Positions 1 to 6,955 of a stretch of 24,068 nucleotides of DNA are shown piece after piece. A model generated the notes under the pieces. That model ran no database searches and was not told the DNA's origin. It was given only the letters and a program-made list of their open reading frames with translations. A program made the translations under genes and the position numbers. Source of the stretch: Acidobacteriota bacterium (GTDB lineage Bacteria; Acidobacteriota; Thermoanaerobaculia; Multivoradales; UBA5704); NCBI GenBank assembly GCA_040005235.1, contig JBDTZG010000074.1, positions 1 through 24,068 of the forward strand, written 5' to 3'. Position 1 is the stretch's first letter; each line of letters starts with the position of its first letter.

Positions 1-100
1 CACGGCCACCGGCGCGCCCAGGGTCGCCATTGCGGCTAACCGCGCCGGAAATGGGGCGCGGCGGGCGGCTTTCGCTGGAAAAATGGACACTGCGGTTCCA

Positions 101-287
101 GATAGCGGCTATCCGCGCTCGATAGCCGCTATCCTGGGCCGATAGCCGCTATCCTGGGCCGATAGCCGCTATACGTGACCGATAGCGGCTATCCGTGGCG
201 GCATAGCCGCTATGCACAGCCGATAGCGGCTATCCCCGACCGATAGCGGCTATCCGAGCCCGATAGCGGCTATCCGCGGCGACATAG
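101..287. repeat. Tandem array of 13-bp palindromes GATAGC(C/G)GCTATC with 7-8 nt variable spacers (left part: 9 full units plus start of unit 10)
   Basis: Units start at 101,121,141,161,181,202,222,242,262; unit 10 (CATAG at 283) is cut by the transposon. Period 20-21 bp. Confidence 0.95.
280..287 (+). repeat. Target site duplication, left copy (CGACATAG)
   Basis: Identical 8-mer at 5530-5537; each copy directly abuts a terminal inverted repeat. Confidence 0.92.
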
Positions 288-309
288 GGTAGTGGTAGCG
301 TTTCAATCC
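288..309 (+). repeat. Terminal inverted repeat downstream of transposase (GGTAGTGGTAGCGTTTCAATCC)
   Basis: 288-303 is the exact reverse complement of 5514-5529; similarity extends imperfectly through AATCC. Confidence 0.92.
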
Positions 310-1148
310 TTTGGATTTTCGAGCAAACCGACCAGGTCGGCGATCGACCAGCGGCGGGAGTCTACGCCCGCGGCTTGCACGGGAGTCTTCCCGCCGAGAC
401 TCGCGTGAGGACGGCAGAAGTTGTAGAAGAAAAAGTGAATCGCGACGTGCGCGGCGTGGTTCTCGACTTTCTTCGAAAAGGCGTTGGTCAGGCGCGTAAA
501 GCGACGGATCGACATCCGCATGGTGAGGTTCGAACGCTCGATGAACGAGGTCGAGATGTGCCGCTCGGCCGGATCGCCGACCACGGGCCGCTTCTCGCAT
601 CCCGTGCATTCCGCCGGGCTGTAGCGGGTTTCGGGGCCGGTCGGGGTGTTGGCGTAGCTCTTGACCAGCTGGGCGAAATCGACGTTACCGCCGAAGGCAT
701 CTTCAACCGCGATCGGGTACATGTTGTGGCCGTCCGTTGTGATCTGGGCGCGGCCCGAGAGACGGCTCGCGAGATCCTGCATCAGCTCGGTCGCGCATCC
801 GGCATCCCGCGAGCCCACCAAGAAAGACGGGACCAGCTTGGTGTCCGCGTCAATCGCGGCGAACGTCCAAACGTCGCCAAAGCCGAACGTGCCGCGCTTG
901 TCGGCGGGAACGTTCTTCGCCTTCGCGTAGCAGAAAGCCCAAATTTCGTCCACCTGGAGGCGCTCGCAATTGAGGTTCCGGAGTGTCTTGTCCTGGTAGC
1001 TGGCGCACGCGTCGCCGAGATCAACGAGCAGCCGGAGAATCGTGGTTTTCGCCACGCCGGTCATGCGAACGGTGGAATTGATCGAGTTGCCTTCGCACAG
1101 AGCGGCGACGACTGCGGTGCGCTTCGAGGACTTCAAGACGTTTGCCAT
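303..1148 (-). CDS. IS1-family DDE transposase (HTH + DDE in one ORF, 281 aa)
   Basis: N-terminal HTH (EGNSINSTVRMTGVAKTTILRLL); catalytic motifs QVDEIW, ITTDG, STSFIERSNLTMR; C-terminal RRFTRLTNAFSKK and YNFCRPH. Start moved from 1199 to ATG 1148 based on the promoter position. Confidence 0.92.
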   Translation of the reverse strand: MANVLKSSKRTAVVAALCEGNSINSTVRMTGVAKTTILRLLVDLGDACASYQDKTLRNLNCERLQVDEIWAFCYAKAKNVPADKRGTFGFGDVWTFAAIDADTKLVPSFLVGSRDAGCATELMQDLASRLSGRAQITTDGHNMYPIAVEDAFGGNVDFAQLVKSYANTPTGPETRYSPAECTGCEKRPVVGDPAERHISTSFIERSNLTMRMSIRRFTRLTNAFSKKVENHAAHVAIHFFFYNFCRPHASLGGKTPVQAAGVDSRRWSIADLVGLLENPKD

Positions 1149-1155
1149 ATGAAAC

Positions 1156-1184
1156 ATTGTACGTGACCGGTCTGGCAATGTCAA
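1156..1184 (-). promoter_or_regulatory. Sigma70-type promoter of the transposase, TTGACA-17 nt-TACAAT
   Basis: Minus-strand TTGACA at 1184-1179 and TACAAT at 1161-1156; ATG follows 7 nt later. Confidence 0.75.
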
Positions 1185-1208
1185 CACCTGGGTTGACATC
1201 GTGTCAAC
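1178..1208. promoter_or_regulatory. Overlapping inverted repeats (three TGTCAAC/GTTGACA half-sites), putative operator
   Basis: ATGTCAAC-6 nt-GTTGACAT (1178-1199) and GTTGACA-3 nt-TGTCAAC (1192-1208). Confidence 0.55.
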
Positions 1209-1337
1209 ATTCTTGGCGGACTGTTCGCGGACCCCGGGGCGTGGGTGCCGATACCAGGGTTCGCAAGGCGCGAACTAGGGTATTGACACCGAACCCAGAG
1301 TCGGCACAAGATGCGCTTGATTTAGAGATGGTCGAGT

Positions 1338-1521
1338 GGCGGTGCTCTTGAGTCTCAGGTGGGGACCAGGATCAAGAGCGACCGCCGGGGCCAGGGAAGG
1401 AAGGTGGACGCAAACCATGCAGTCACAATCACTAGCCGCCCCGTAGACGGGCGCAGGGGCCGGGAAACCGGTCCCTTTTGTGCCGCATGACTCACACCGA
1501 GGGGTAAAGGGTTACCTCTCG
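1338..1521 (+). ncRNA. Candidate structured RNA / long 5' leader
   Basis: Stems 1338-1351/1372-1386, 1416-1428/1478-1489, 1437-1443/1448-1453, 1456-1463/1468-1475 (GAAA loop) and 1498-1507/1512-1521; non-Watson-Crick pairs are G-U on the + strand. Confidence 0.5.
1455..1479 (+). terminator. Intrinsic terminator-like hairpin (possible attenuator)
   Basis: GGGGCCGG-GAAA-CCGGTCCC followed by TTTT. Confidence 0.5.
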
Positions 1522-1561
1522 ATCCGTTTTCATTCTAACGGTGTCCGCGGGAGGCGTCAAG

Positions 1562-2086
1562 ATGAGCGACATTGACTACGGCCCCGTGCTTGAAGATCTG
1601 CGAGCCCGGCGAGACGAGATCGACGCTGCGATAGCTGTGATTGAGAAGTTTTCTACCGGGCCCGGGGCCATCTCCGCCGCCGCGAGATTTTCTGTGGCGC
1701 CCGCCGTCGTCGAAAGCTTACCGGTTGAGGGCTCGCCGGTTCCTGTGCGAGTGGAATCCGACACGTTTTTCCGAATGAGCGCCAGCGAGGCCACGCAGAA
1801 GTACTTAAAGATGGTGAAAAAGCCTACCTCCCTAGTAGTGATCTGCCGAGCCCTGGAGGGGGGTGGCTACCTCACGTCCGCCAAAAACTTCTATTCGAAT
1901 TTGTACACAACCTTGATGAGGTCGAGCGCGTTTGTGCAGGTCAATAAGGATTGGGGGCTGGCGGAGTGGTACCCCGGGAAAAGAACCGACCCTAAGGTCA
2001 AACGTACCAACGGCGGGGGAGGCGCCGCGACCGAGGAGGCGCCTATGGCGGGGGGCGATCCGGTTACTTCGCCCACCGAGCCTTAG
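1562..2086 (+). CDS. Coiled-coil + winged-helix (HARE-HTH / RNA polymerase delta N-terminal-like) protein, 174 aa
   Basis: SD GGAGG at ~1550 before ATG 1562; N-terminal heptad helix LEDLRARRDEIDAAIAVIE; FVQVNKDWGLAEWYP resembles the wing motif of delta-subunit/HARE-HTH domains. Confidence 0.7.
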   Translation: MSDIDYGPVLEDLRARRDEIDAAIAVIEKFSTGPGAISAAARFSVAPAVVESLPVEGSPVPVRVESDTFFRMSASEATQKYLKMVKKPTSLVVICRALEGGGYLTSAKNFYSNLYTTLMRSSAFVQVNKDWGLAEWYPGKRTDPKVKRTNGGGGAATEEAPMAGGDPVTSPTEP

Positions 2087-2105
2087 CAGCCTTCGCCGCG
2101 CTCTC

Positions 2106-2132
2106 GCGGCGCTCCTCTGGGGTGAGCGCCGC
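2106..2132. terminator. GC-rich hairpin between convergent genes
   Basis: GCGGCGCTC (2106-2114) / GAGCGCCGC (2124-2132); no clear U-tract. Confidence 0.35.
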
Positions 2133-2184
2133 TGCTGTGGTATGCCCGCCCTTCAATCCGCCGCGAGCGCCGCCGCTTCGGGAT

Positions 2185-2685
2185 CTACTTGGCGTAGTTT
2201 TTTACCGAAAATCGAAGCTCGGCGAGCATGGTAGCCGTATCAATGCATCGAATATCAAAGGCCCTGGCGATCGTTGGTATCTTGATCTTCGATTTATTCG
2301 ATTTTTCGTTTTCTTGTGTAACTACAATCCCTCCGTCTGCTATCCCGTGGGCAATCAGCCATCCGTCCGCGCCTGACAGAAATAGCCTTGCCTGCTGGGG
2401 CTTGTAATTCTCTTGCGAGTAGGCCGCTATCGCGCCGTAGATTTCTTGAACCTCCCTGGATTCGTTCTTGCACAGCCCGGTCGTCTTTCTCGCCTTGCAC
2501 CACGCCGCCAGTTCGTCCTTGAAGCCAACCTTGGTGATTTCGTCGTATGCAAGTCTAGGCATCTGAATTCTTGAGGTCGCGAGGTGCTCTTCGATAAACA
2601 TCCAGAACTGCGGAACCATATCCAGCCGAAGCACGCCTCGCGACGCGTGGATCAATACCCCTGCATCGATCCAGTAATTGGGCAT
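2185..2685 (-). CDS. DUF4411 family PIN-like protein (putative RNase toxin)
   Basis: YWIDAGVLI N-terminus, YDEI, ADGWLIAHG, VVTQE and KIKIPTIA motifs; starts 4 nt after the peptidase stop codon. Confidence 0.85.
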   Translation of the reverse strand: MPNYWIDAGVLIHASRGVLRLDMVPQFWMFIEEHLATSRIQMPRLAYDEITKVGFKDELAAWCKARKTTGLCKNESREVQEIYGAIAAYSQENYKPQQARLFLSGADGWLIAHGIADGGIVVTQENEKSNKSKIKIPTIARAFDIRCIDTATMLAELRFSVKNYAK

Positions 2686-2689
2686 AGGG

Positions 2690-3850
2690 CTATCTCGACA
2701 TCTCCGCGAACTTCGCCAGCGTTGGCACGCTCAGGGAGAGTAGCTGGGCGCCGTGTGTCAGCAGCAGCGCTTTTCGATTCACTTCGCCCAGAACGGCGTT
2801 GGTGAAGCGAGCCCCCATTCGAGCCGTCACGTTTCGATAATAGTCGCCGCCGGACGATTTCTTGCCGTCGGAAATCTTCTTTAGTTCCGCGCTCCGCAAT
2901 TGATGAAACTCGATGTCAGATAACAAGTCGAGATCATGCGCCCTCCGAAGTACAACGAGGGTGCTCACCCAAAACCGCCTAGCTAAAGCACTGATCCTAG
3001 TTGCGCCGCGCTCGGAAGCCTCCCACCCATTCAAGAACTCACCTTGCGGAACCAGGGCTGTGGCCGCGACACGATTACAAAATGCTTCGACTGGATTGGC
3101 GCTCGGCTTCAGGGGGTCGGGGTTGGTGATTGCGCTCTGGTTAATCCATAGGTGTGCTAGTTCGTGGATAAGGGTAAAAATTTGAGCAGCCTTATAATCG
3201 GCGCTGTTGACGAACACTACCGGCGCGTAGGGGTCGGTAACGGCAAAGCCCTGCACTTCCTTGGGGGATATCTTGTATTGAGTGGTATTGCCTACGATGC
3301 TGCTTCTCATAACCAGAATGCCGCCGGTCTCTGCGTGACGGGTGATTGTGCTCAGGTATTCGCTCCAGCTTCCTACACCACTACGGAGATCCGCCGTAAG
3401 TCCCAGAGTGTTGCGAATGCTGGTCGCAACATCGGTTACTTTATCTTTCGATGTGAAGCTACCTATAAACTTTAGCTTTGCCAGGCGAGGGGAAGATTCG
3501 CGCAGGTGATCTCTGTACCAGTCCTGCCGAACCAAAACCTCATTCAAGAGCTGGAGGAATTCAACGCTCGGCGGATGATACCCGTGGCCAAGCGTGCGAA
3601 AATCAGGGATCGGTAAATCTTCTGCGGGCACCTCAGGAAGGAAGAGATACCCAAAGGGTAAATGCAGAGCCTTTGCGAGATCCTGGGCTTTCGCAAAGGG
3701 TGGCGGAATTCCTGCTTCCCAGCTTGCGATTTGCTCTGGATCTACCTTGACCTTAGAGGCAACGAGGGTCTTCGACTGCCCGCTAGCCTTGATGGCCCAG
3801 GTGAGAATCTCGGGGTTGATGAACGCAACGTCGGCGCTAGTTTTAGGCAT
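2690..3850 (-). CDS. Xre HTH + ImmA/IrrE (peptidase M78, COG2856) metallopeptidase, 386 aa
   Basis: INPEILTWA...IASWEAG...LAKALHLPFGYLFL HTH, PDFRT linker, FTLIHELAHLW HExxH, EAFCNRVAATALVP; AGGAGG SD supports ATG 3850 rather than 3946. Confidence 0.9.
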   Translation of the reverse strand: MPKTSADVAFINPEILTWAIKASGQSKTLVASKVKVDPEQIASWEAGIPPPFAKAQDLAKALHLPFGYLFLPEVPAEDLPIPDFRTLGHGYHPPSVEFLQLLNEVLVRQDWYRDHLRESSPRLAKLKFIGSFTSKDKVTDVATSIRNTLGLTADLRSGVGSWSEYLSTITRHAETGGILVMRSSIVGNTTQYKISPKEVQGFAVTDPYAPVVFVNSADYKAAQIFTLIHELAHLWINQSAITNPDPLKPSANPVEAFCNRVAATALVPQGEFLNGWEASERGATRISALARRFWVSTLVVLRRAHDLDLLSDIEFHQLRSAELKKISDGKKSSGGDYYRNVTARMGARFTNAVLGEVNRKALLLTHGAQLLSLSVPTLAKFAEMSR

Positions 3851-3964
3851 TCGACCTCCTCGTGATACAATTCGAGTAGGTCGTTCGCGCCGAGTGGGTC
3901 CAGCACTGGGAGCAACGGCAGGTGCTACGCGTTTTGTGTCGGCCATAGAACCGACCGCTTTTCC

Positions 3965-4243
3965 TTAAGCCTTCCTTCTACCTGCCCAGCGAGCCGCCGC
4001 CGCCTTGATAGCCGATTCGTGGCGCTCTAGCTGTGTAAGCTTTGCCGCCCTAGCTTTGCCGCCCTTTAGACCGCCCTTGCGGCCGAGCGCGACCGCGGCG
4101 GGGTCTTTTGCCTTGCCTGCTACCTGCTGAGGCGTTGACGTTCCTGTAAGCTCCGCAACGATTGCAAACGCGAGCGTGTTAGAGTCCCGCGGCCGTTTTG
4201 GGAGCGGGTCGGGGTGCTCGGGCTTCCGTGAGTGGTCAGGCAT
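3965..4243 (-). CDS. Small basic KGG-motif protein (often labelled histone H1-like), 92 aa
   Basis: KRPRDSNTLAFAIV and KDPAAVALGRKGGLKGGKARAAKLT...KAAAARW; extended -10 TGnTACCCT lies 6 nt before the ATG. Confidence 0.8.
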   Translation of the reverse strand: MPDHSRKPEHPDPLPKRPRDSNTLAFAIVAELTGTSTPQQVAGKAKDPAAVALGRKGGLKGGKARAAKLTQLERHESAIKAAAARWAGRRKA

Positions 4244-4290
4244 GGCCCTAGGGTAACACAGGGCGGCCCGTACAGGCGCCGCCCTTGGTG

Positions 4291-4737
4291 CTACACGCTC
4301 TCTTTCTCGTGACGTTGAACGATTCCCGCGGCGGATGCTTCATCGCGGGCGTAGGCGGGGGCCAGCTCGGCGGCAAGGGCTCGACACTGGCGCGCCGTCT
4401 TCAAGGTGGCGATCACCTTCCCGGTTGGCAGGTAGACCAGCGTCCGGGGCTCGATCCGCGCGGGACCCGCCGCGCTGCCCTGGTAGTAGCCGAAGGGAAC
4501 CGAGACCTTGCCCCAAACGTCGGGAAGCTCTCGGCCCCCGAGCAGGATGACGCGGAAGAACCCGCGCGACCAGTCGAGCGGCATCGGCAGACCGCCCCGA
4601 ACGATCGCGCGGAGCTGGGCATCCGCGGCATGGGCGAGCCAATGGCCGACGCTCGGGAAGGATTCGGCGCTCGCCACCCGCTTCCAGGCGATCGACTGCG
4701 GCATGGTGGCCCGAACGGTGAACGTCGCTACCTTCAT
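4291..4737 (-). CDS. Hypothetical protein with N-terminal ribbon-helix-helix-like segment, 148 aa
   Basis: ATG 4737 overlaps the upstream TGA (ATGA coupling); strand ATFTVRA followed by two amphipathic helices. Confidence 0.6.
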   Translation of the reverse strand: MKVATFTVRATMPQSIAWKRVASAESFPSVGHWLAHAADAQLRAIVRGGLPMPLDWSRGFFRVILLGGRELPDVWGKVSVPFGYYQGSAAGPARIEPRTLVYLPTGKVIATLKTARQCRALAAELAPAYARDEASAAGIVQRHEKESV

Positions 4738-4970
4738 GCGTCCGCTGCTTTGATCCATGGCACCAACGCCTTCGGGCGTTCGGTCGTCTTCACGAAGTAC
4801 AGGTTCACGTAGAGGGTTCCCAAGGCGTGAAGCCACGCCCCCACGTCCGCCCGGTGCTGGTGTGCTGCCAGGGCTTCGAATGCGCGTTGTTCGTCCGCGC
4901 TGGGGACCGTGACCGGGTAACACTTCGGCCCGGTCGGCACGATCGGCGTTTCCTTCGGCGGTCGCCCCAT
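4734..4970 (-). CDS. Small protein with GRPPK (AT-hook-like) start and RHH-like segment, 78 aa
   Basis: Starts 3 nt after the upstream stop and is coupled to the downstream gene; MGRPPK, YPVTV strand, two helices. Confidence 0.55.
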   Translation of the reverse strand: MGRPPKETPIVPTGPKCYPVTVPSADEQRAFEALAAHQHRADVGAWLHALGTLYVNLYFVKTTERPKALVPWIKAADA

Positions 4971-4973
4971 GGC

Positions 4974-5351
4974 CTAGGCCCCGACCGTCCGTTCGATCTG
5001 TTCGGCGATCCGCGCGGCTTCCGGAGCCTGAGACTCGGCAAGTTGGGAGAGCTTGACGCCTTTTCGATCCAGGCTCGCCTGTAGGTACTCCCGGCCGATC
5101 GCTTCGAGCTGGCCTTCAAGGAACCGGAAGTCCCCGGCAATGGCGAGCAACTCGCCTTCGGAGTCCGGCCCTTGGTCGCGATGCCACTCCCGACCGCATT
5201 CGAGCGCGCAGCCGTAGAGCAGGCGTCCGAGACGTTCCAAGGCGGTAGCGTCTTCGGGCTTGAACAGGCGGAGGAACGTGCCGCGAAACACGGCGAATTC
5301 CTCCCATTCGGCAGAGTGAAACGGCGGGATAGACTGCGGGCGGTCGGACAT
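4974..5351 (-). CDS. Hypothetical helical protein, 125 aa
   Basis: SD AAGGGAG upstream of ATG 5351; first gene of a tightly packed three-gene run. Confidence 0.65.
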   Translation of the reverse strand: MSDRPQSIPPFHSAEWEEFAVFRGTFLRLFKPEDATALERLGRLLYGCALECGREWHRDQGPDSEGELLAIAGDFRFLEGQLEAIGREYLQASLDRKGVKLSQLAESQAPEAARIAEQIERTVGA

Positions 5352-5415
5352 GGGGTTTCTCCCTTGTTCGGCTAGGTCCGTCGGGGTGTGCTGAGCACTC
5401 CGGCGGGCCGCTTCT
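5342..5415 (+). ncRNA. Candidate cis-antisense sRNA covering the RBS and start codon of the 125-aa gene
   Basis: -10-like TAGACT at 5330-5335; 14-bp stem 5375-5388/5396-5409 that is fully paired (3 G-U) only on the + strand. Ends are approximate. Confidence 0.45.
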
Positions 5416-5506
5416 GTAGGCATCGGAGATGGATTTCTCGCGCGCCCGGGAGGAAGTTACACCCGAAAACACGCCCTTTAACTCCATTCAATTACTTGGA
5501 TTTAGG

Positions 5507-5529
5507 GGATTTCAAACGCTACCACTACC
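5507..5529 (-). repeat. Terminal inverted repeat, cargo side (GGTAGTGGTAGCGTTTGAAATCC on minus strand)
   Basis: Reverse complement match to 288-309. Confidence 0.92.
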
Positions 5530-5537
5530 CGACATAG
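5530..5537 (+). repeat. Target site duplication, right copy (CGACATAG)
   Basis: Identical to 280-287. Confidence 0.92.
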
Positions 5538-5565
5538 CCGCTATCCACGGCCGATAGCCGCTATA
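5533..5565. repeat. Right part of the palindrome array (units 10 and 11)
   Basis: CATAGCCGCTATC (5533-5545), 7-nt spacer, GATAGCCGCTATA (5553-5565). Confidence 0.9.
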
Positions 5566-5711
5566 CGGAGGCGCAACTCAGCCCTCCACGACCGAGACCC
5601 GCTCTCCGGCGCCGATTGCCTTTCTCACGCACCGACAGCGGCGATCCGAGGCCGAGAAGCGGCTTTCCGCGCGGGATAGCGTGAGCGACGGCCGATACCG
5701 CTCCTACGCTT

Positions 5712-6368
5712 CTACGAGCCGTTCCACAGCTCCAGCGTGTCGCGCTGTTCGCGCAGCAGCACTCGCTCGCCTCCCGAGATCAGATAGCCGAGATCGCGGT
5801 AGCGGGCGAGCAGGCGCCGGCCGGTCGGGCTCGACGCCAGCACGACCCGGTGCGGCGCGCGCTCCCGGATGCCCTCTTCCACCCACAGGTTGTCGTCGTT
5901 CCAGACGAACTTCCGGCCGGCGACCTCGCTGGTCGTCGGCGGCTGAAACAGGAATCCTGGGTTGGTGACGCTCACCACCTCGTGCCGGGCCTTGAGCGCG
6001 AGCGCCCGGTCTCGGGCAACAGAGTATTCGCGCACTACTCCCACCGTCATCAGCATCAAGGCCGCCGTGGCGAGCGTCGCGAGACCGCCCCAACCGCTTG
6101 CGAGACGGGAAAAGAGCGAACGGCGGGGCGCGACCTTGGCCGCCTCCACGAGGACGTCCCAGCGCACCCGTTGCGCCAGGTCGGCGGGCGGCGCGGAACG
6201 CCGCACCCGGGAAAGGAGGTCAACCGTGCCGCGCAGGCGGTCCAACTGCGCCCGGCAGTCGGTACAGGTTTCGAGATGCAAGTCGAGCCGCCGCCGCTCG
6301 GGCTGCGACAGCTCGCGATCGAGATACGCCGAGGCCAGCTCGAACGTGAGATGAAAGGGACGATTCAT
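5712..6368 (-). CDS. Zinc-finger (zf-HC2) membrane anti-sigma factor, 218 aa
   Basis: SAYLDRELS...HLETCTDC (HxxxCxxC), one TM helix; ATG 6368 overlaps the sigma stop codon. Confidence 0.88.
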   Translation of the reverse strand: MNRPFHLTFELASAYLDRELSQPERRRLDLHLETCTDCRAQLDRLRGTVDLLSRVRRSAPPADLAQRVRWDVLVEAAKVAPRRSLFSRLASGWGGLATLATAALMLMTVGVVREYSVARDRALALKARHEVVSVTNPGFLFQPPTTSEVAGRKFVWNDDNLWVEEGIRERAPHRVVLASSPTGRRLLARYRDLGYLISGGERVLLREQRDTLELWNGS

Positions 6369-6955
6369 GATCCGCTCTCCAGCAAGTCGCGCAGCCGTTC
6401 CCGCCCGCGCGCGATCCGCGAGCGCACGGTGCCGATCGGCACGCTGAGCGCGGCGGAGATTTCTTCGTAAGCGAGGCCTTCGAGGTCGCGCAACATGACC
6501 GCCTCGCGGAATTCGATCGGCAATTGAGCGAGCGCCTCGCTCACCCGACGGCTGTCGTCGGAAGCGACCGCCAGATCCTCCGGTCCGCGCCCCAGATCGG
6601 GCAGCGGCTCGGCCGTTTCCTCTCCCTCTTCGAACAGACGGCGGAACGACCAGCGGTTGCCGCCGCTCAACCGGCCGCGGCAATGGTTGAGGGCGATCCG
6701 GTAGACCCAGGTGCGCAGGGCGGAGCGTCCGCGGAACCCCCCGAGGTGGCGATAGATGCGCAGGAAGACCTCTTGCGACAGGTCGGCGGCCCGGTCCGGG
6801 TCGCCCGCCAGGCGGAGCGTTACGTTCCAGACCATTTCGGCAAACTGGGAGTAGACCTCGTCGAAGGCCGAGCGGTCGCCGGCCCGATGCCGCTCGACCA
6901 GATCGAGCTCGGCATCCCGAACCGCGGTGGAGGTGGAGATCATCGCAATGCTCAC
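6365..6955 (-). CDS. ECF RNA polymerase sigma-70 factor (RpoE/SigW-like)
   Basis: Region 2 DLSQEVFLRIY...FRGRSALRTWVYRIALN; region 4 LRDLEGLAYEEIS...GTVRSRIARGR. Confidence 0.95.
   Translation of the reverse strand: MSIAMISTSTAVRDAELDLVERHRAGDRSAFDEVYSQFAEMVWNVTLRLAGDPDRAADLSQEVFLRIYRHLGGFRGRSALRTWVYRIALNHCRGRLSGGNRWSFRRLFEEGEETAEPLPDLGRGPEDLAVASDDSRRVSEALAQLPIEFREAVMLRDLEGLAYEEISAALSVPIGTVRSRIARGRERLRDLLESGS

Follow-up and report, generated by a model that had tools for sequence, protein, structure and literature searches.

The window, meaning the whole 24,068-nucleotide stretch of DNA that was analyzed, contains at 288-5529 what its sequence indicates is an intact and probably active IS1-family transporter IS of 5,242 bp. 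An earlier note had placed a passenger-carrying IS1-family element at 280..5537; the element is real, but that span also takes in both copies of the target site duplication (TSD) lying outside the terminal inverted repeats (TIR). The features of the locus are as follows.

101..287, no strand: left part of the target, a tandem array of 20-bp units with the 13-bp palindrome GATAGCSGCTATC, 9 units (TRF period 20, 9.1 copies)
280..287, no strand: left TSD copy, CGACATAG, exact 8-bp match
288..309, plus: TIR at the transposase 3' end, GGTAGTGGTAGCGTTT, 16/16 and then degenerate
303..1199, minus: IS1-family DDE transposase, single ORF, longest 298 aa (Pfam, NCBIfam, invariant residues, plasmid homologues)
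1156..1199, minus: predicted transposase promoter with candidate operator, palindrome ATGTCAAC-N6-GTTGACAT and a third GTGTCAAC (motif positions 1178, 1192, 1201)
1200..1540, no strand: part of the variable cargo, a non-coding spacer with predicted structure (MFE -157.6 kcal/mol, z -4.86)
1541..2086, plus: orf181, variable cargo, weakly similar to RNA polymerase delta at its N-terminus (HARE-HTH type)
2185..2685, minus: DUF4411 protein, candidate toxin (Pfam PF14367, 123.9 bits)
2690..3946, minus: HTH_3 + Peptidase_M78 protein (ImmA/IrrE-type, HELAH motif), candidate antitoxin/regulator (Pfam 46.9 and 23.2 bits)
3965..4243, minus: orf92, small protein rich in lysine (…GRKGGLKGGKARAAKLT…ARW), belongs to the backbone and occurs in many siblings
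4291..4737, minus: r150, N-terminal ribbon-helix-helix (RHH) and C-terminal domain of ~95 residues (alignment, AF2, structural matches)
4734..4970, minus: orf78, small protein whose sequence pattern is RHH-like by our own reading, in 5/33 elements
4974..5423, minus: geneA, probable start MSDRPQSIPP at 5351, first gene in 32/33 elements
5508..5529, minus: TIR at the geneA end
5530..5537, no strand: right TSD copy, CGACATAG, exact 8-bp match
5533..5573, no strand: continuation of the interrupted array to the right of the element, 2 good units followed by decayed ones to about 5675

Boundaries, transposase and IS1 affiliation

The repeat at 288-303 is the reverse complement of 5514-5529 at 16/16 positions, with the likeness extending to 18/20. 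Seven further ORFs occupy the interval from the transposase start to the far TIR, six of them in a tight minus-strand operon (4974-5423, 4734-4970, 4291-4737, 3965-4243, 2690-3946 and 2185-2685) and a single one, 1541-2086, on the plus strand. Two public runs, which may be the source samples, were independently assembled into contigs that span both junctions with no difference (143-4336 and 4330-6500), and none of their contigs showed an empty-site allele. The closest relative lacks the element at its orthologous locus, so the insertion is younger than the split from that relative, in agreement with the recent insertion that had been proposed. No empty allele carrying just one CGACATAG turned up; at the orthologous G003 locus the element is missing, but the array consists of only two units.

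Could the locus instead be a short IS1 beside unrelated chromosomal genes, with the far TIR a coincidence? Classical IS1 elements are under 1 kb, which speaks for such an arrangement. The earlier note had raised the case of a second TIR right upstream of homologous transposases, yet no TIR copy lies near 1200, and in the whole 6.22-Mb assembly mismatch-free copies of the 16-mer occur only at the element's two ends, at 288 and 5529. In addition, the two TSD copies match exactly, 32 further elements keep the same gene order within TIR and TSD, the whole 5.2 kb is missing from the orthologous G003 locus, and a copy in genome G006 has the same two ends and a matching TSD, leaving this arrangement barely credible.

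The transposase, which likely starts at ATG 1148 to give 281 aa, lacks an N-terminal zinc finger in the copy studied here. It matches Pfam DDE_Tnp_IS1 with 30.7 bits (cut-off 24.1), and its best NCBIfam model is IS1, at 51.9 bits yet below the cut-off of 100. All residues that do not vary among 32 aligned transposases (D67, E68, D139, E204 and others) are kept, and plasmid-borne homologues with 51-56% identity are annotated 'IS1 family transposase', among them the one in a related 3,370-bp element on a plasmid of Mesorhizobium loti (TIR 20/20, TSD CGCTGGTG, transposase 55.6% identical). The affiliation given in the earlier note is supported by these Pfam, NCBIfam and plasmid matches. As in single-ORF (non-frameshift) IS1 and the IS1595 transporter IS, a DDE transposase fitting the IS1 profile is combined with an 8-bp duplication and, as in the latter, with passengers inside the inverted repeats; the ends start with GGnnnTG, the end consensus according to ISfinder, where long IS1 members (ISMhu11 group) are also listed. 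Unlike these elements, the one described here has a conserved multi-gene accessory operon beyond free passengers, and unlike IS1 it has neither the insA/insB frameshift arrangement nor, in this copy, a zinc finger. A sigma-70-like promoter is predicted ahead of ATG 1148 (TTGACA-17-TACAAT at 1184-1156, 11/12 consensus), and the palindrome overlapping its -35 box may be an operator.

Backbone genes and cargo slot

To delimit sister elements, 51 transposase hits in 63 loci were examined, and 34 of the hits had TIR and an exact 8-bp TSD. One composite, which accounted for two rows, was then removed and C18 was included manually, giving a final set of 33 elements, the 17 hits not delimited by the strict rule being uncounted. 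The 33 measure 3,403-7,784 bp, come from 19 genomes and have TSDs that are all 8 bp and all different. The element belongs to a transposon family spread through one Thermoanaerobaculia family of soil Acidobacteria. Two siblings reside in the same genome as the window, C113 (3844-8344, TSD TGGATAGC, transposase 60% identical) and C18 (222414-226819, TSD CACCGGTG), whose transposase is 38% identical and has a zinc finger. Each shares r150 and orf78 with the window's element, and of the two only C18 shares geneA as well.

Seven passenger ORFs had been counted earlier, and seven are present, but they are not all free cargo: judging from the siblings, geneA, orf78, r150 and orf92 are a conserved backbone. 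The geneA product is modeled as a four-helix bundle with a disordered but conserved N-terminal peptide (AF2 pLDDT 79.5), and a search with this model found no fold match. Neither orf78 nor orf92 matched a Pfam family. The start ATG of r150 overlaps the orf78 stop (ATGA), and r150 is present in 33/33 elements because the loci were picked by it; more broadly, it was found in 29/36 genomes of the same family versus 1/24 from the order's other families. Its AF2 model (pLDDT 85.5) supports an RHH fold for the N-terminus, which matches NikR and other RHH proteins (VIA Z 6.9, rmsd 1.1 over 46 residues). The C-terminal domain is new, with no clear structural match (best PsiB, Z 4.9). For orf92, tblastn matches were obtained in 7/20 loci and the cluster spans 14 elements, and a homologue in Mesorhizobium carries the annotation 'histone H1'.

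The G006 copy, the nearest relative, matches the window at 239-1184 (89%) and 4253-5564 (92%) and differs in the middle, so that only ~1185-4250 is variable; there it has a HicB-type antitoxin module (38 and 37 bits) in place of the window's cargo. The exchangeable cargo is the HTH-M78/DUF4411 pair, orf181 and the structured spacer only. Cargo in sister elements includes HTH_3+M78, HigB, PIN, PIN_10, SocA_Panacea and Schlafen AlbA_2. A toxin-antitoxin-like pair had been read in this cargo before, and the DUF4411 protein, which we take to be PIN-like, does lie beside the HTH_3 + Peptidase_M78 protein. The two genes are adjacent, co-oriented and 4 nt apart, as in Xre-COG2856 (ImmA/IrrE)-DUF4411 pairs, and as in Rosmer, PADLOC RmrA models match the HTH-M78 protein (up to 55 bits); no PADLOC RmrT model matches the DUF4411 partner. 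Unlike in those systems, the pair here is transposon cargo, and its toxin and antitoxin roles are candidate ones. For orf181, the match to NCBIfam TIGR04567 (21.8 bits) is below the cut-off of 42, and the rest of the genome holds no further copy. As for the two candidate RNAs suggested earlier, the spacer at 1200-1545 does fold well, but nothing reached an Rfam family and the G006 copy has not kept the spacer.

Insertion into tandem arrays

The GATAGCSGCTATC repeats flanking the element, which the earlier note overlooked, are its target, and array targeting is a family-wide property and the main point of this analysis. At the left array the motif has 22 matches versus 6.5 expected.

Members of the family insert into arrays of 20/21-bp units far more often than chance, with 26/33 elements in such tandem arrays, including 3/3 in this genome, where arrays make up 0.36% of the sequence (121 arrays, 22.6 kb). 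Reconstructed empty sites have an autocorrelation of >=0.5 at lag 20/21/41/42 in 22/33 cases and >=0.45 in 26/33, versus the same level in 0.5% of 5,000 random genome windows and 0.2% of 2,440 fetched-locus windows. When 100-bp flanks are considered, 14 elements have periodicity on both sides, 12 on one side and 7 on neither, compared with 0.45% of 20,000 control windows (100 bp), and TRF reports a period 20-22 array at 27 of the 33 reconstructed sites. The seven elements outside arrays include two identical G026 copies. All three independent insertions of the window subfamily, C75, C113 and G006 (TSD GCTATCGG), went into GATAGCSGCTATC arrays, and at L035 and L042 one array is common to two different elements. 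The TSDs themselves have only a weak sequence bias, C......G. Array choice is an unusual landing-site strategy for a transposon.

The arrays are host features whose sequences differ from genome to genome. That the elements made or spread them, as footprints or element-borne landing pads, would fit the concentration of both arrays and r150 elements in one bacterial family (small samples). We consider this very unlikely, as the arrays lie outside TIR and TSD, many uninterrupted arrays exist, including in this genome, and 20/21-bp units cannot arise from an 8-bp duplication. Furthermore, genus members with the same array family carry few or no elements: adjacent-unit pairs number 50 in G003, 24 in G002, 9 in G004 and 2 in G001, and no element was found in G001 though the array family is present.

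The account by Tobes and Pareja (2006, PMC1525189) describes REP/BIME-targeting IS (ISPsy8, ISPa11, ISPpu9/10, ISRm22, IS1397 and others) that insert into abundant intergenic palindromic repeats, with genes spared. The present family does likewise. REP-targeting IS are members of other families, such as IS110 and IS3, and each recognizes one REP sequence, whereas this family is IS1-type and combines a fixed 20/21-bp period with many unrelated unit sequences and a variable position within the unit.

Sparing of genes through harmless repeats, the usual rationale for such IS in that same account (PMC1525189), also invites a passive explanation, in which random insertions survive in harmless DNA or recombination-prone arrays collect mobile DNA. 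The arrays are indeed non-essential, the one at the window's locus having two units in G003 and being absent from 5/7 genus relatives. However, 0.36% of the genome is a small share even of intergenic survivors compared with 26/33, related elements in other hosts lie outside arrays, and the exact 8-bp duplications at every junction indicate direct transposition into the array and not recombination. A passive association is therefore improbable.

r150 and the choice of target

Our best explanation of the whole, an intact transporter IS with a backbone and a cargo slot that belongs to an array-targeting family, is given a probability of about 0.8. The transposase lies at one end and would be transcribed from its own predicted near-consensus promoter, the other end holds the conserved accessory operon (geneA, the small RHH-like ORF, r150 and the lysine-rich small protein), and the slot between them takes exchangeable cargo. 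Insertion generates the 8-bp duplication. The transpososome may read a property common to arrays and no fixed sequence; candidates are a phasing of the DNA at intervals of two helical turns and a protein lattice on such DNA. We suggest that r150 acts as an adaptor bringing the transposase to arrays via the C-terminal domain found only in the array-hitting clade, that RHH domains also repress the element's promoters, and that the toxin-antitoxin-like cargo may stabilize the element or its carrier DNA.

Relatives that fall outside the array-hitting clade retain geneA together with a short RHH-only homologue of 64-87 aa. Arrays hold 0/9 delimited elements with this homologue versus 26/33 with full r150 (Fisher 2.6e-5; kin not independent), a contrast that is confounded, as arrays seem rare in the RHH-only hosts, though samples are small: G025 yielded 2 arrays over 400 kb, and G039, G046 and G048 yielded 0 over 100 kb apiece, versus 1.9 per 100 kb in the window's genome. 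In G026, which is rich in elements, 200 kb sampled contained 0 arrays. The strand residues FTVRAT of the RHH domain are identical in this genome's three elements, which sit on two unrelated array families, and the array palindrome has no copy inside the element; the RHH domain itself therefore probably does not read array sequence.

pSK41 ParR, an RHH protein, sits on 20-bp tandem repeats that are centromere-like. The N-terminus of r150 has structural matches that include omega (Z 5.1) and ParG (Z 4.7), and as in ParR/ParG/omega an RHH is joined to a C-terminal region, there partner-binding, and arrays of ~20-bp units have dyad-symmetric cores. In contrast to those systems, no partition ATPase is present and the array sequences are many and host-borne, and the identical RHH strands on different arrays speak against binding of arrays by r150; the analogy is functional only.

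Array preference might also be set by the transposase alone, for example through bent or deformable phased DNA, with r150, orf78 and other RHH proteins serving as repressors only. This deserves real weight, although we hold it to be somewhat doubtful. The candidate operator on the -35 box, the same RHH strand residues on unrelated array families and the weak TSD bias, as expected for shape read-out by a transposase, all point this way, and a recent report on IS605 elements offers a precedent in Arc, an RHH accessory protein reported to be simply a promoter repressor (bioRxiv 10.64898/2026.09.24.754181). Against it, the two array-hitting transposase clades, only 36-40% identical, are both in arrays with full r150 (14/18 and 12/15) and both outside them without it (0/3 and 0/6 in arrays). 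InsA of IS1 is likewise a small DNA-binding repressor of the IS promoter, of zinc-finger/HTH and not RHH type. An IS-encoded repressor role of this kind fits both the promoter palindrome and the RHH domains in r150 and orf78, but an Arc-like repressor needs no conserved 95-residue C-terminal domain, and it is by this extra domain, present only in the array-hitting clade, that r150 differs from both Arc and InsA.

Ends, transposase and passenger genes of the element

The element proper spans positions 288-5529 (5,242 bp) and ends in GGTAGTGGTAGCGTTT, with inverted repeats that are identical at 16/16 positions and show weaker likeness further inward, and the 8-bp target site duplication (TSD) CGACATAG directly abuts both ends. 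No further exact copy of the terminal 16-mer was found across the 6.22-Mb assembly, and Logan contigs, assembled independently from two runs that are possibly the source samples, span both junctions with zero differences. Both ends start with GGTAGTG; the terminal inverted repeats (TIRs) of the IS1 family have the consensus start GGnnnTG, and its target duplications measure 8-9 bp. The genes of the element are as follows.

Features of the window element
303-1199, minus strand: transposase (Pfam DDE_Tnp_IS1, 30.7 bits, cut-off 24.1)
1541-2086, opposite strand to the operon: orf181
2185-2685, minus strand: DUF4411 protein (PF14367)
2690-3946, minus strand: HTH_3 + Peptidase_M78 protein (PF01381 + PF06114)
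3965-4243, minus strand: orf92, operon member
4291-4737, minus strand: r150, its ATG overlapping the orf78 stop
4734-4970, minus strand: orf78, 3 nt past geneA
4974-5423, minus strand: geneA, probable start MSDRPQSIPP at 5351

The best NCBIfam model for the transposase was IS1 at 51.9 bits (below its curated cut-off of 100), versus 21.9 bits for IS1595. 'IS1 family transposase' is also the annotation of full-length homologues at 51-56% identity on alphaproteobacterial plasmids, and all residues invariant among 32 aligned transposases are kept in the window copy. As judged from profile scores and homologue annotation, the element belongs to the IS1 family. Classical IS1 (IS1A type) is shorter than 1 kb, links insA to insB' through a programmed -1 frameshift and has an N-terminal zinc finger. 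The window element is not a classical IS1, because it measures 5,242 bp, its transposase is a single continuous ORF and zinc-finger models gave zero matches to this copy. A near-consensus sigma-70 site (11/12 match, TTGACA-17-TACAAT, 1184-1156) lies 7 nt ahead of the ATG at 1148, which is the probable transposase start. The palindrome ATGTCAAC-N6-GTTGACAT (1178-1199) overlaps this promoter and is a likely operator for one of the DNA-binding proteins of the element. Three copies of (A/G)TGTCAAC overlie the promoter in positions 1156-1208, two of which make up this palindrome.

Upstream of the transposase lies a tight minus-strand operon of geneA, orf78, r150, orf92, the HTH_3 + Peptidase_M78 gene (HTH-M78) and the DUF4411 gene. 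As passengers unrelated to transposition lie within one pair of inverted repeats and one TSD, the element is a transporter IS (tIS) and works as such. ISfinder includes long IS1 members. A literature search whose coverage lacked most subscription journals and ISfinder/TnPedia returned no paper on an IS1-family tIS, and one overview confines transporter IS to the IS1595 and IS66 families. The HTH-M78 and DUF4411 genes are adjacent and co-oriented with a 4-nt gap, which is the layout of Xre/ImmA-IrrE (COG2856) plus DUF4411 pairs, and on this gene arrangement they are a candidate toxin-antitoxin-like pair. In PADLOC the M78 protein alone gave matches, to RmrA models with scores of up to 55 bits; for the Rosmer partner, no RmrT model matched the DUF4411 protein (PADLOC, E up to 0.1).

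The spacer between transposase and orf181 (1200-1545) folds better than 100/100 shuffles (z -4.86) and holds terminator-like hairpins and a second promoter-like site. An Rfam search at E up to 1 over positions 1-6200 assigned no family, the sole match being a chance miRNA model inside the neighbouring tandem array (E 0.099). The spacer lies in the variable part of the element and is absent from the nearest related copy, in genome G006. This spacer, the site of the candidate RNAs of the earlier note, might encode an RNA specific to the cargo or might do no more than terminate transcription. No RNA run that contains the region came up, which is neutral between the two.

A family of sibling elements with a conserved backbone and exchangeable cargo

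Two further elements reside in the same assembly (G000). The first (C113:3844-8344) has a transposase 60% identical to that of the window element, the TIR GGTACTGGGTC… and the TSD TGGATAGC; in the second (C18:222414-226819), the transposase shares 38% identity and includes an IS1/IS1595 zinc-finger domain (NF050000, 29.1 bits), and the TSD is CACCGGTG. Both carry homologues of r150 and orf78 at the transposase-distal end, and geneA is also found in the C18 element. Because the assembly, in which repeats may be under-represented, gave zero rve or DDE_Tnp_1 transposase matches and one IS110-type match, its principal assembled transposons are the window element and these two. An 82-bp hairpin repeat (C117:13112-13193, C65:388-469 and about 15 more) has ends that resemble the IS1-type TIR (GGTAGTGG-like; GGTAGTGGTT…) and was considered as a MITE of this family. 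This was rejected, since no target duplications and no array flanks were seen in 17 matches, and it is probably an unrelated REP-like element.

Beyond this assembly, r150 was found in 29/36 genomes of the same family, at up to 30 copies, and in 1/24 genomes of other families in the order. In order to delimit further elements, 60 loci were retrieved around r150 matches, and each transposase match was searched for inverted ends starting with GG and an exact 7-9-bp duplication. Such a pair was obtained for 34/51 examined transposase matches; two of the 34 rows represented one 9.9-kb composite and were left out. The 17 matches without a pair included the C18 element, whose palindromic TSD defeats the script and which was delimited by hand. 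The final set comprised 33 elements of 3,403-7,784 bp (median 4,343) from 19 genomes, every one with a different TSD. The start GG(T/C)N(C/G)TG was present in 33/33, although the filter itself demanded GG, and the duplication was 8 bp in the window element and in 33/33, with 7 and 9 also permitted by the search.

Clustering of ORFs, in which many clusters were disregarded as genuine genes of this GC-rich DNA read in a wrong frame, gave a shared order of TIR, geneA, an optional small RHH-like ORF (5/33 elements), r150, a small protein, variable genes, transposase and TIR. GeneA occurs in 32/33 elements, in three sequence classes with a common N-terminal M-P/S-D-R-P-x-S-I-P-P-like peptide. The slot after r150 is filled either by an orf92-type lysine-rich protein (a 14-element cluster plus orf92 itself) or, in 14 elements, by a small protein with an RHH-like pattern, as read by eye from the sequence.

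The nearest copy to the window element, in G006, is split across two contigs (C171 and C149) and is 92% identical to positions 4253-5564 and 89% identical to positions 239-1184. It is a complete and independent insertion, because GCTATCGG flanks both its ends. In its middle lie an orf92 homologue that is 76% identical in amino-acid sequence, a HicB-type antitoxin scoring 38.0 and 37.1 bits, a HicA-like ORF with a weak score of 12.3 bits (below cut-off) and a 230-aa protein without a family. As different genes lie between the conserved blocks in G006, the cargo that can be exchanged comprises the HTH-M78/DUF4411 pair, orf181 and the 1200-1540 spacer. The earlier note had counted seven passengers; the pair and orf181 remain so, while geneA, orf78, r150 and orf92 recur in sibling elements.

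Pfam was run on 69/130 candidate cargo ORFs of the other elements, with backbone genes and shorter ORFs left out, and most of the 69 gave no family. HTH_3 + Peptidase_M78 cargo was found in three other elements, two of them identical copies. The remaining recognised cargo comprised a HigB-like toxin, PIN, PIN_10, SocA_Panacea, Schlafen AlbA_2 + HATPase_c_4, a ClpP-like SDH protease, P63C and several DUFs. Owing to these recognisable families, the proposal of an addiction or defence cargo, which had been made for this element, holds for the slot in general. In soil Acidobacteria, IS1-family elements thus act as vehicles for swappable modules of the toxin-antitoxin and defence-like kinds. On a Mesorhizobium loti plasmid (CP050295.1, 470343-473712), a 3,370-bp relative (TIR 20/20, TSD CGCTGGTG) with nearly the same TIR encodes an HTH protein and an orf92-like product that its annotation calls 'histone H1'. 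This relative lacks r150 and sits outside arrays. Because of this relative, IS1-type transporter IS are not limited to Acidobacteria. The element itself is ordinary mobile DNA, and what is of interest in it is the choice of target and the accessory operon.

Insertion into tandem arrays of 20/21-bp period

The GATAGCSGCTATC repeats beside the element had been read as mere flanks. Instead, they form an array of 20-bp period in which the element sits, with nine units to its left and at least two to its right. The C113 element lies in another array of the GATAGCSGCTATC family and the G006 copy in a third, with the TSD at different positions within the unit (TGGATAGC in C113, CGACATAG in the window, GCTATCGG in G006); the C18 element lies in a 21-bp array of unrelated sequence.

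Empty sites were rebuilt for the 33 elements from 150 bp per side and one copy of the TSD. Autocorrelation reached at least 0.5 at 22/33 rebuilt sites and at least 0.45 at 26/33, with a lag that was always 20, 21, 41 or 42. The threshold of 0.5 was reached by 0.5% of 5,000 random G000 windows and 0.2% of 2,440 windows from the retrieved loci away from the elements. With 100-bp flanks taken separately, both were periodic in 14 elements, one in 12 and none in seven, compared with 0.45% of 20,000 control windows. TRF reported an array of period 20-22 at 27/33 rebuilt sites, with units that are mostly unrelated and many of which hold a 12-14-bp palindrome. Bias within the TSD is weak (C at position 1 in 19/33, G at positions 7-8). 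At two loci the array that holds one element also holds another, different IS1-type element (L035, from about 12990 onward; L042, from about 13170 onward), and both elements of L035 use the identical 8-mer CAAGATCG.

The arrays are host features, and uninterrupted ones are present in G000. TRF (period 20, 21 or 40-42; at least 70 bp) gave 121 merged arrays there, totalling 22.6 kb or 0.36% of the genome, with a median length of 162 bp and 11 at contig ends (for example C56:53726-53925, C82:130713-130965, C118:19385-19559, C10:25044-25444 and C33:36325-36786). Their units form many unrelated families, in which a palindromic core of 12-14 bp is frequent; the arrays are candidates for protein-binding lattices, curved DNA or coding heptad repeats. 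The element family also draws attention to these arrays in their own right, 121 of them in a 6.2-Mb genome. The elements could be seen in arrays simply through passive survival in harmless DNA, and this explanation is very unlikely because 26/33 elements lie in what amounts to 0.36% of the genome. An apparent split array on C122 was considered as an insertion and proved to be a duplicated segment.

The GATAGCSGCTATC family is conserved across the genus at very different abundance, with 50 adjacent-unit pairs in G003, 24 in G002, nine in G004, two in G001 and none in G005 (85% complete); G001 and G005 gave no r150 or transposase match. The orthologous locus was located via the right-flank genes in 7/7 genus relatives. 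In G003 (93% identical), the left flank (window about 18-113) passes through two repeat units (L092, C26) to the right flank, and since the flanks are joined through repeats without an element, the locus was unoccupied until recently. In five relatives both array and element are missing from the locus, where a different upstream gene abuts, and G006 has a long compound array of 41-bp period without an element (L097, C64). With about 11 units in the window (101-287 and 5533-5675) against two in G003, the array at this locus expands and contracts and changes fast. The empty allele that the earlier note called for, an intact unit containing one CGACATAG, did not turn up at the orthologous loci; the G003 orthologue is empty, with an array of two units only. 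An uninterrupted paralogous unit, …GGCGACATAGCC…, is present in the C113 array, and contigs of three runs, which drop rare variants, contained no empty-site joint of 287 to 5530. To the right of the element, two overlapping minus-strand ORFs (5712-6955) were read by eye as an anti-sigma and an ECF sigma factor.

The r150 protein and its possible role in the recognition of arrays

For most simple DDE transposons, the selection of a target is less well understood than any other step; the solutions known so far comprise sequence motifs, REP hairpins, replication forks, adaptor proteins of the Tn7 type and guide RNAs. Among the backbone proteins, r150 matched no Pfam (RHH profiles included), NCBIfam or PADLOC family, nothing in a PDB profile search below E 0.8 and nothing in the PDB by Foldseek at E up to 0.001. 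Only 234 proteins out of 1.84 billion representatives are related to it at E up to 0.001, and the protein Atlas returned its own cluster and low-score leads only. Its AlphaFold model (pLDDT 85.5) aligned over residues 1-51 with solved ribbon-helix-helix (RHH) structures, led by NikR (Z 6.9, rmsd 1.1 Å, 46 residues) and the PutA RHH (6.6) in VIA-align, where Z values under 8 count as moderate. Further matches to the N-terminus were TacA, Arc, omega and ParG; rows 1-38 all cover residues 1-51 under titles that are mostly ribbon-helix-helix, and Foldseek paired this part with 1y9b (probability 0.95, 45 columns). On the predicted fold, residues 1-51 belong to the ribbon-helix-helix (Arc/MetJ/CopG) superfamily. 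The C-terminal β/α domain had no convincing match, the best being PsiB (Z 4.9, within the full-length model). GeneA is modelled as a four-helix bundle behind a disordered conserved peptide, and its structure search gave generic helical-bundle matches only.

A comparison set was drawn from IS1-type elements of another genus of the same family (g10) and of other families of the order (18 loci, nine elements delimited). These elements retain geneA and the lysine-rich protein, and the r150 homologue, where seen (five elements), is a 64-87-aa RHH-only protein. None of the nine lies in an array, versus 26/33 of the main set (Fisher 2.6e-5, related elements not being independent), and the contrast recurs within both transposase clades (14/18 and 12/15 with full r150; 0/3 and 0/6 without). 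A scarcity of arrays in the comparison hosts would offer another account, and arrays do seem rare there (two doubtful ones in 400 kb of G025; none in 100 kb each of G039, G046 and G048). G026, which is element-rich and has two elements in arrays, also gave none in 200 kb sampled. A conserved, compact accessory operon travels with the family, and because it is shortened in relatives outside arrays, the targeting question is directly testable with few genes.

The three G000 elements share one and the same RHH strand, FTVRAT, despite their two unrelated array families, and the array palindrome, sought inside the element as an operator, is absent. For these reasons we think that the RHH domain may bind the element's own control sites, by analogy with Arc of IS605, an RHH protein reported to do so. 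Were r150 an adaptor, its C-terminal domain would read either the arrays themselves or a host protein that occupies them; that this domain is the array-reading part is a tentative suggestion, with the odds somewhat against it. The fuller reading, to which we assign a probability of about 0.3, is that r150 is a new kind of targeting factor whose C-terminal domain senses a 20/21-bp (two-helical-turn) lattice of DNA or host protein, whatever the unit sequence, and delivers arrays to the IS1-type transposase. This would amount to periodicity-guided insertion into a safe harbour. If true, the abundant 20/21-bp arrays of these Acidobacteria would be a chromatin-like feature exploited by a transposon. 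The elements are a natural family of small IS1-type transposons that find tandem arrays of a given period across many sequences.

A literature search, with much of the transposon literature outside its coverage, returned no paper on bacterial transposons aimed at tandem arrays, and none on targeting by period together with an RHH-plus-domain accessory protein. IS of other families that target REP sequences insert into intergenic palindromic repeats (PMC1525189). The elements described here use many unrelated array units at variable positions and so differ from the REP-targeting type, which is defined by a fixed position of one REP sequence. ParR-type proteins, RHH proteins that bind tandem repeats of about 20 bp cooperatively and have a partner NTPase, would offer a functional analogy only, and ORF and Pfam scans detected no NTPase gene inside the window element. 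A second context for r150 is a set of three diverged paralogues in tandem, around which 9 kb hold no transposase of the IS1 type (L051, L052, L087 and L089 in G026; also L039 and L088).
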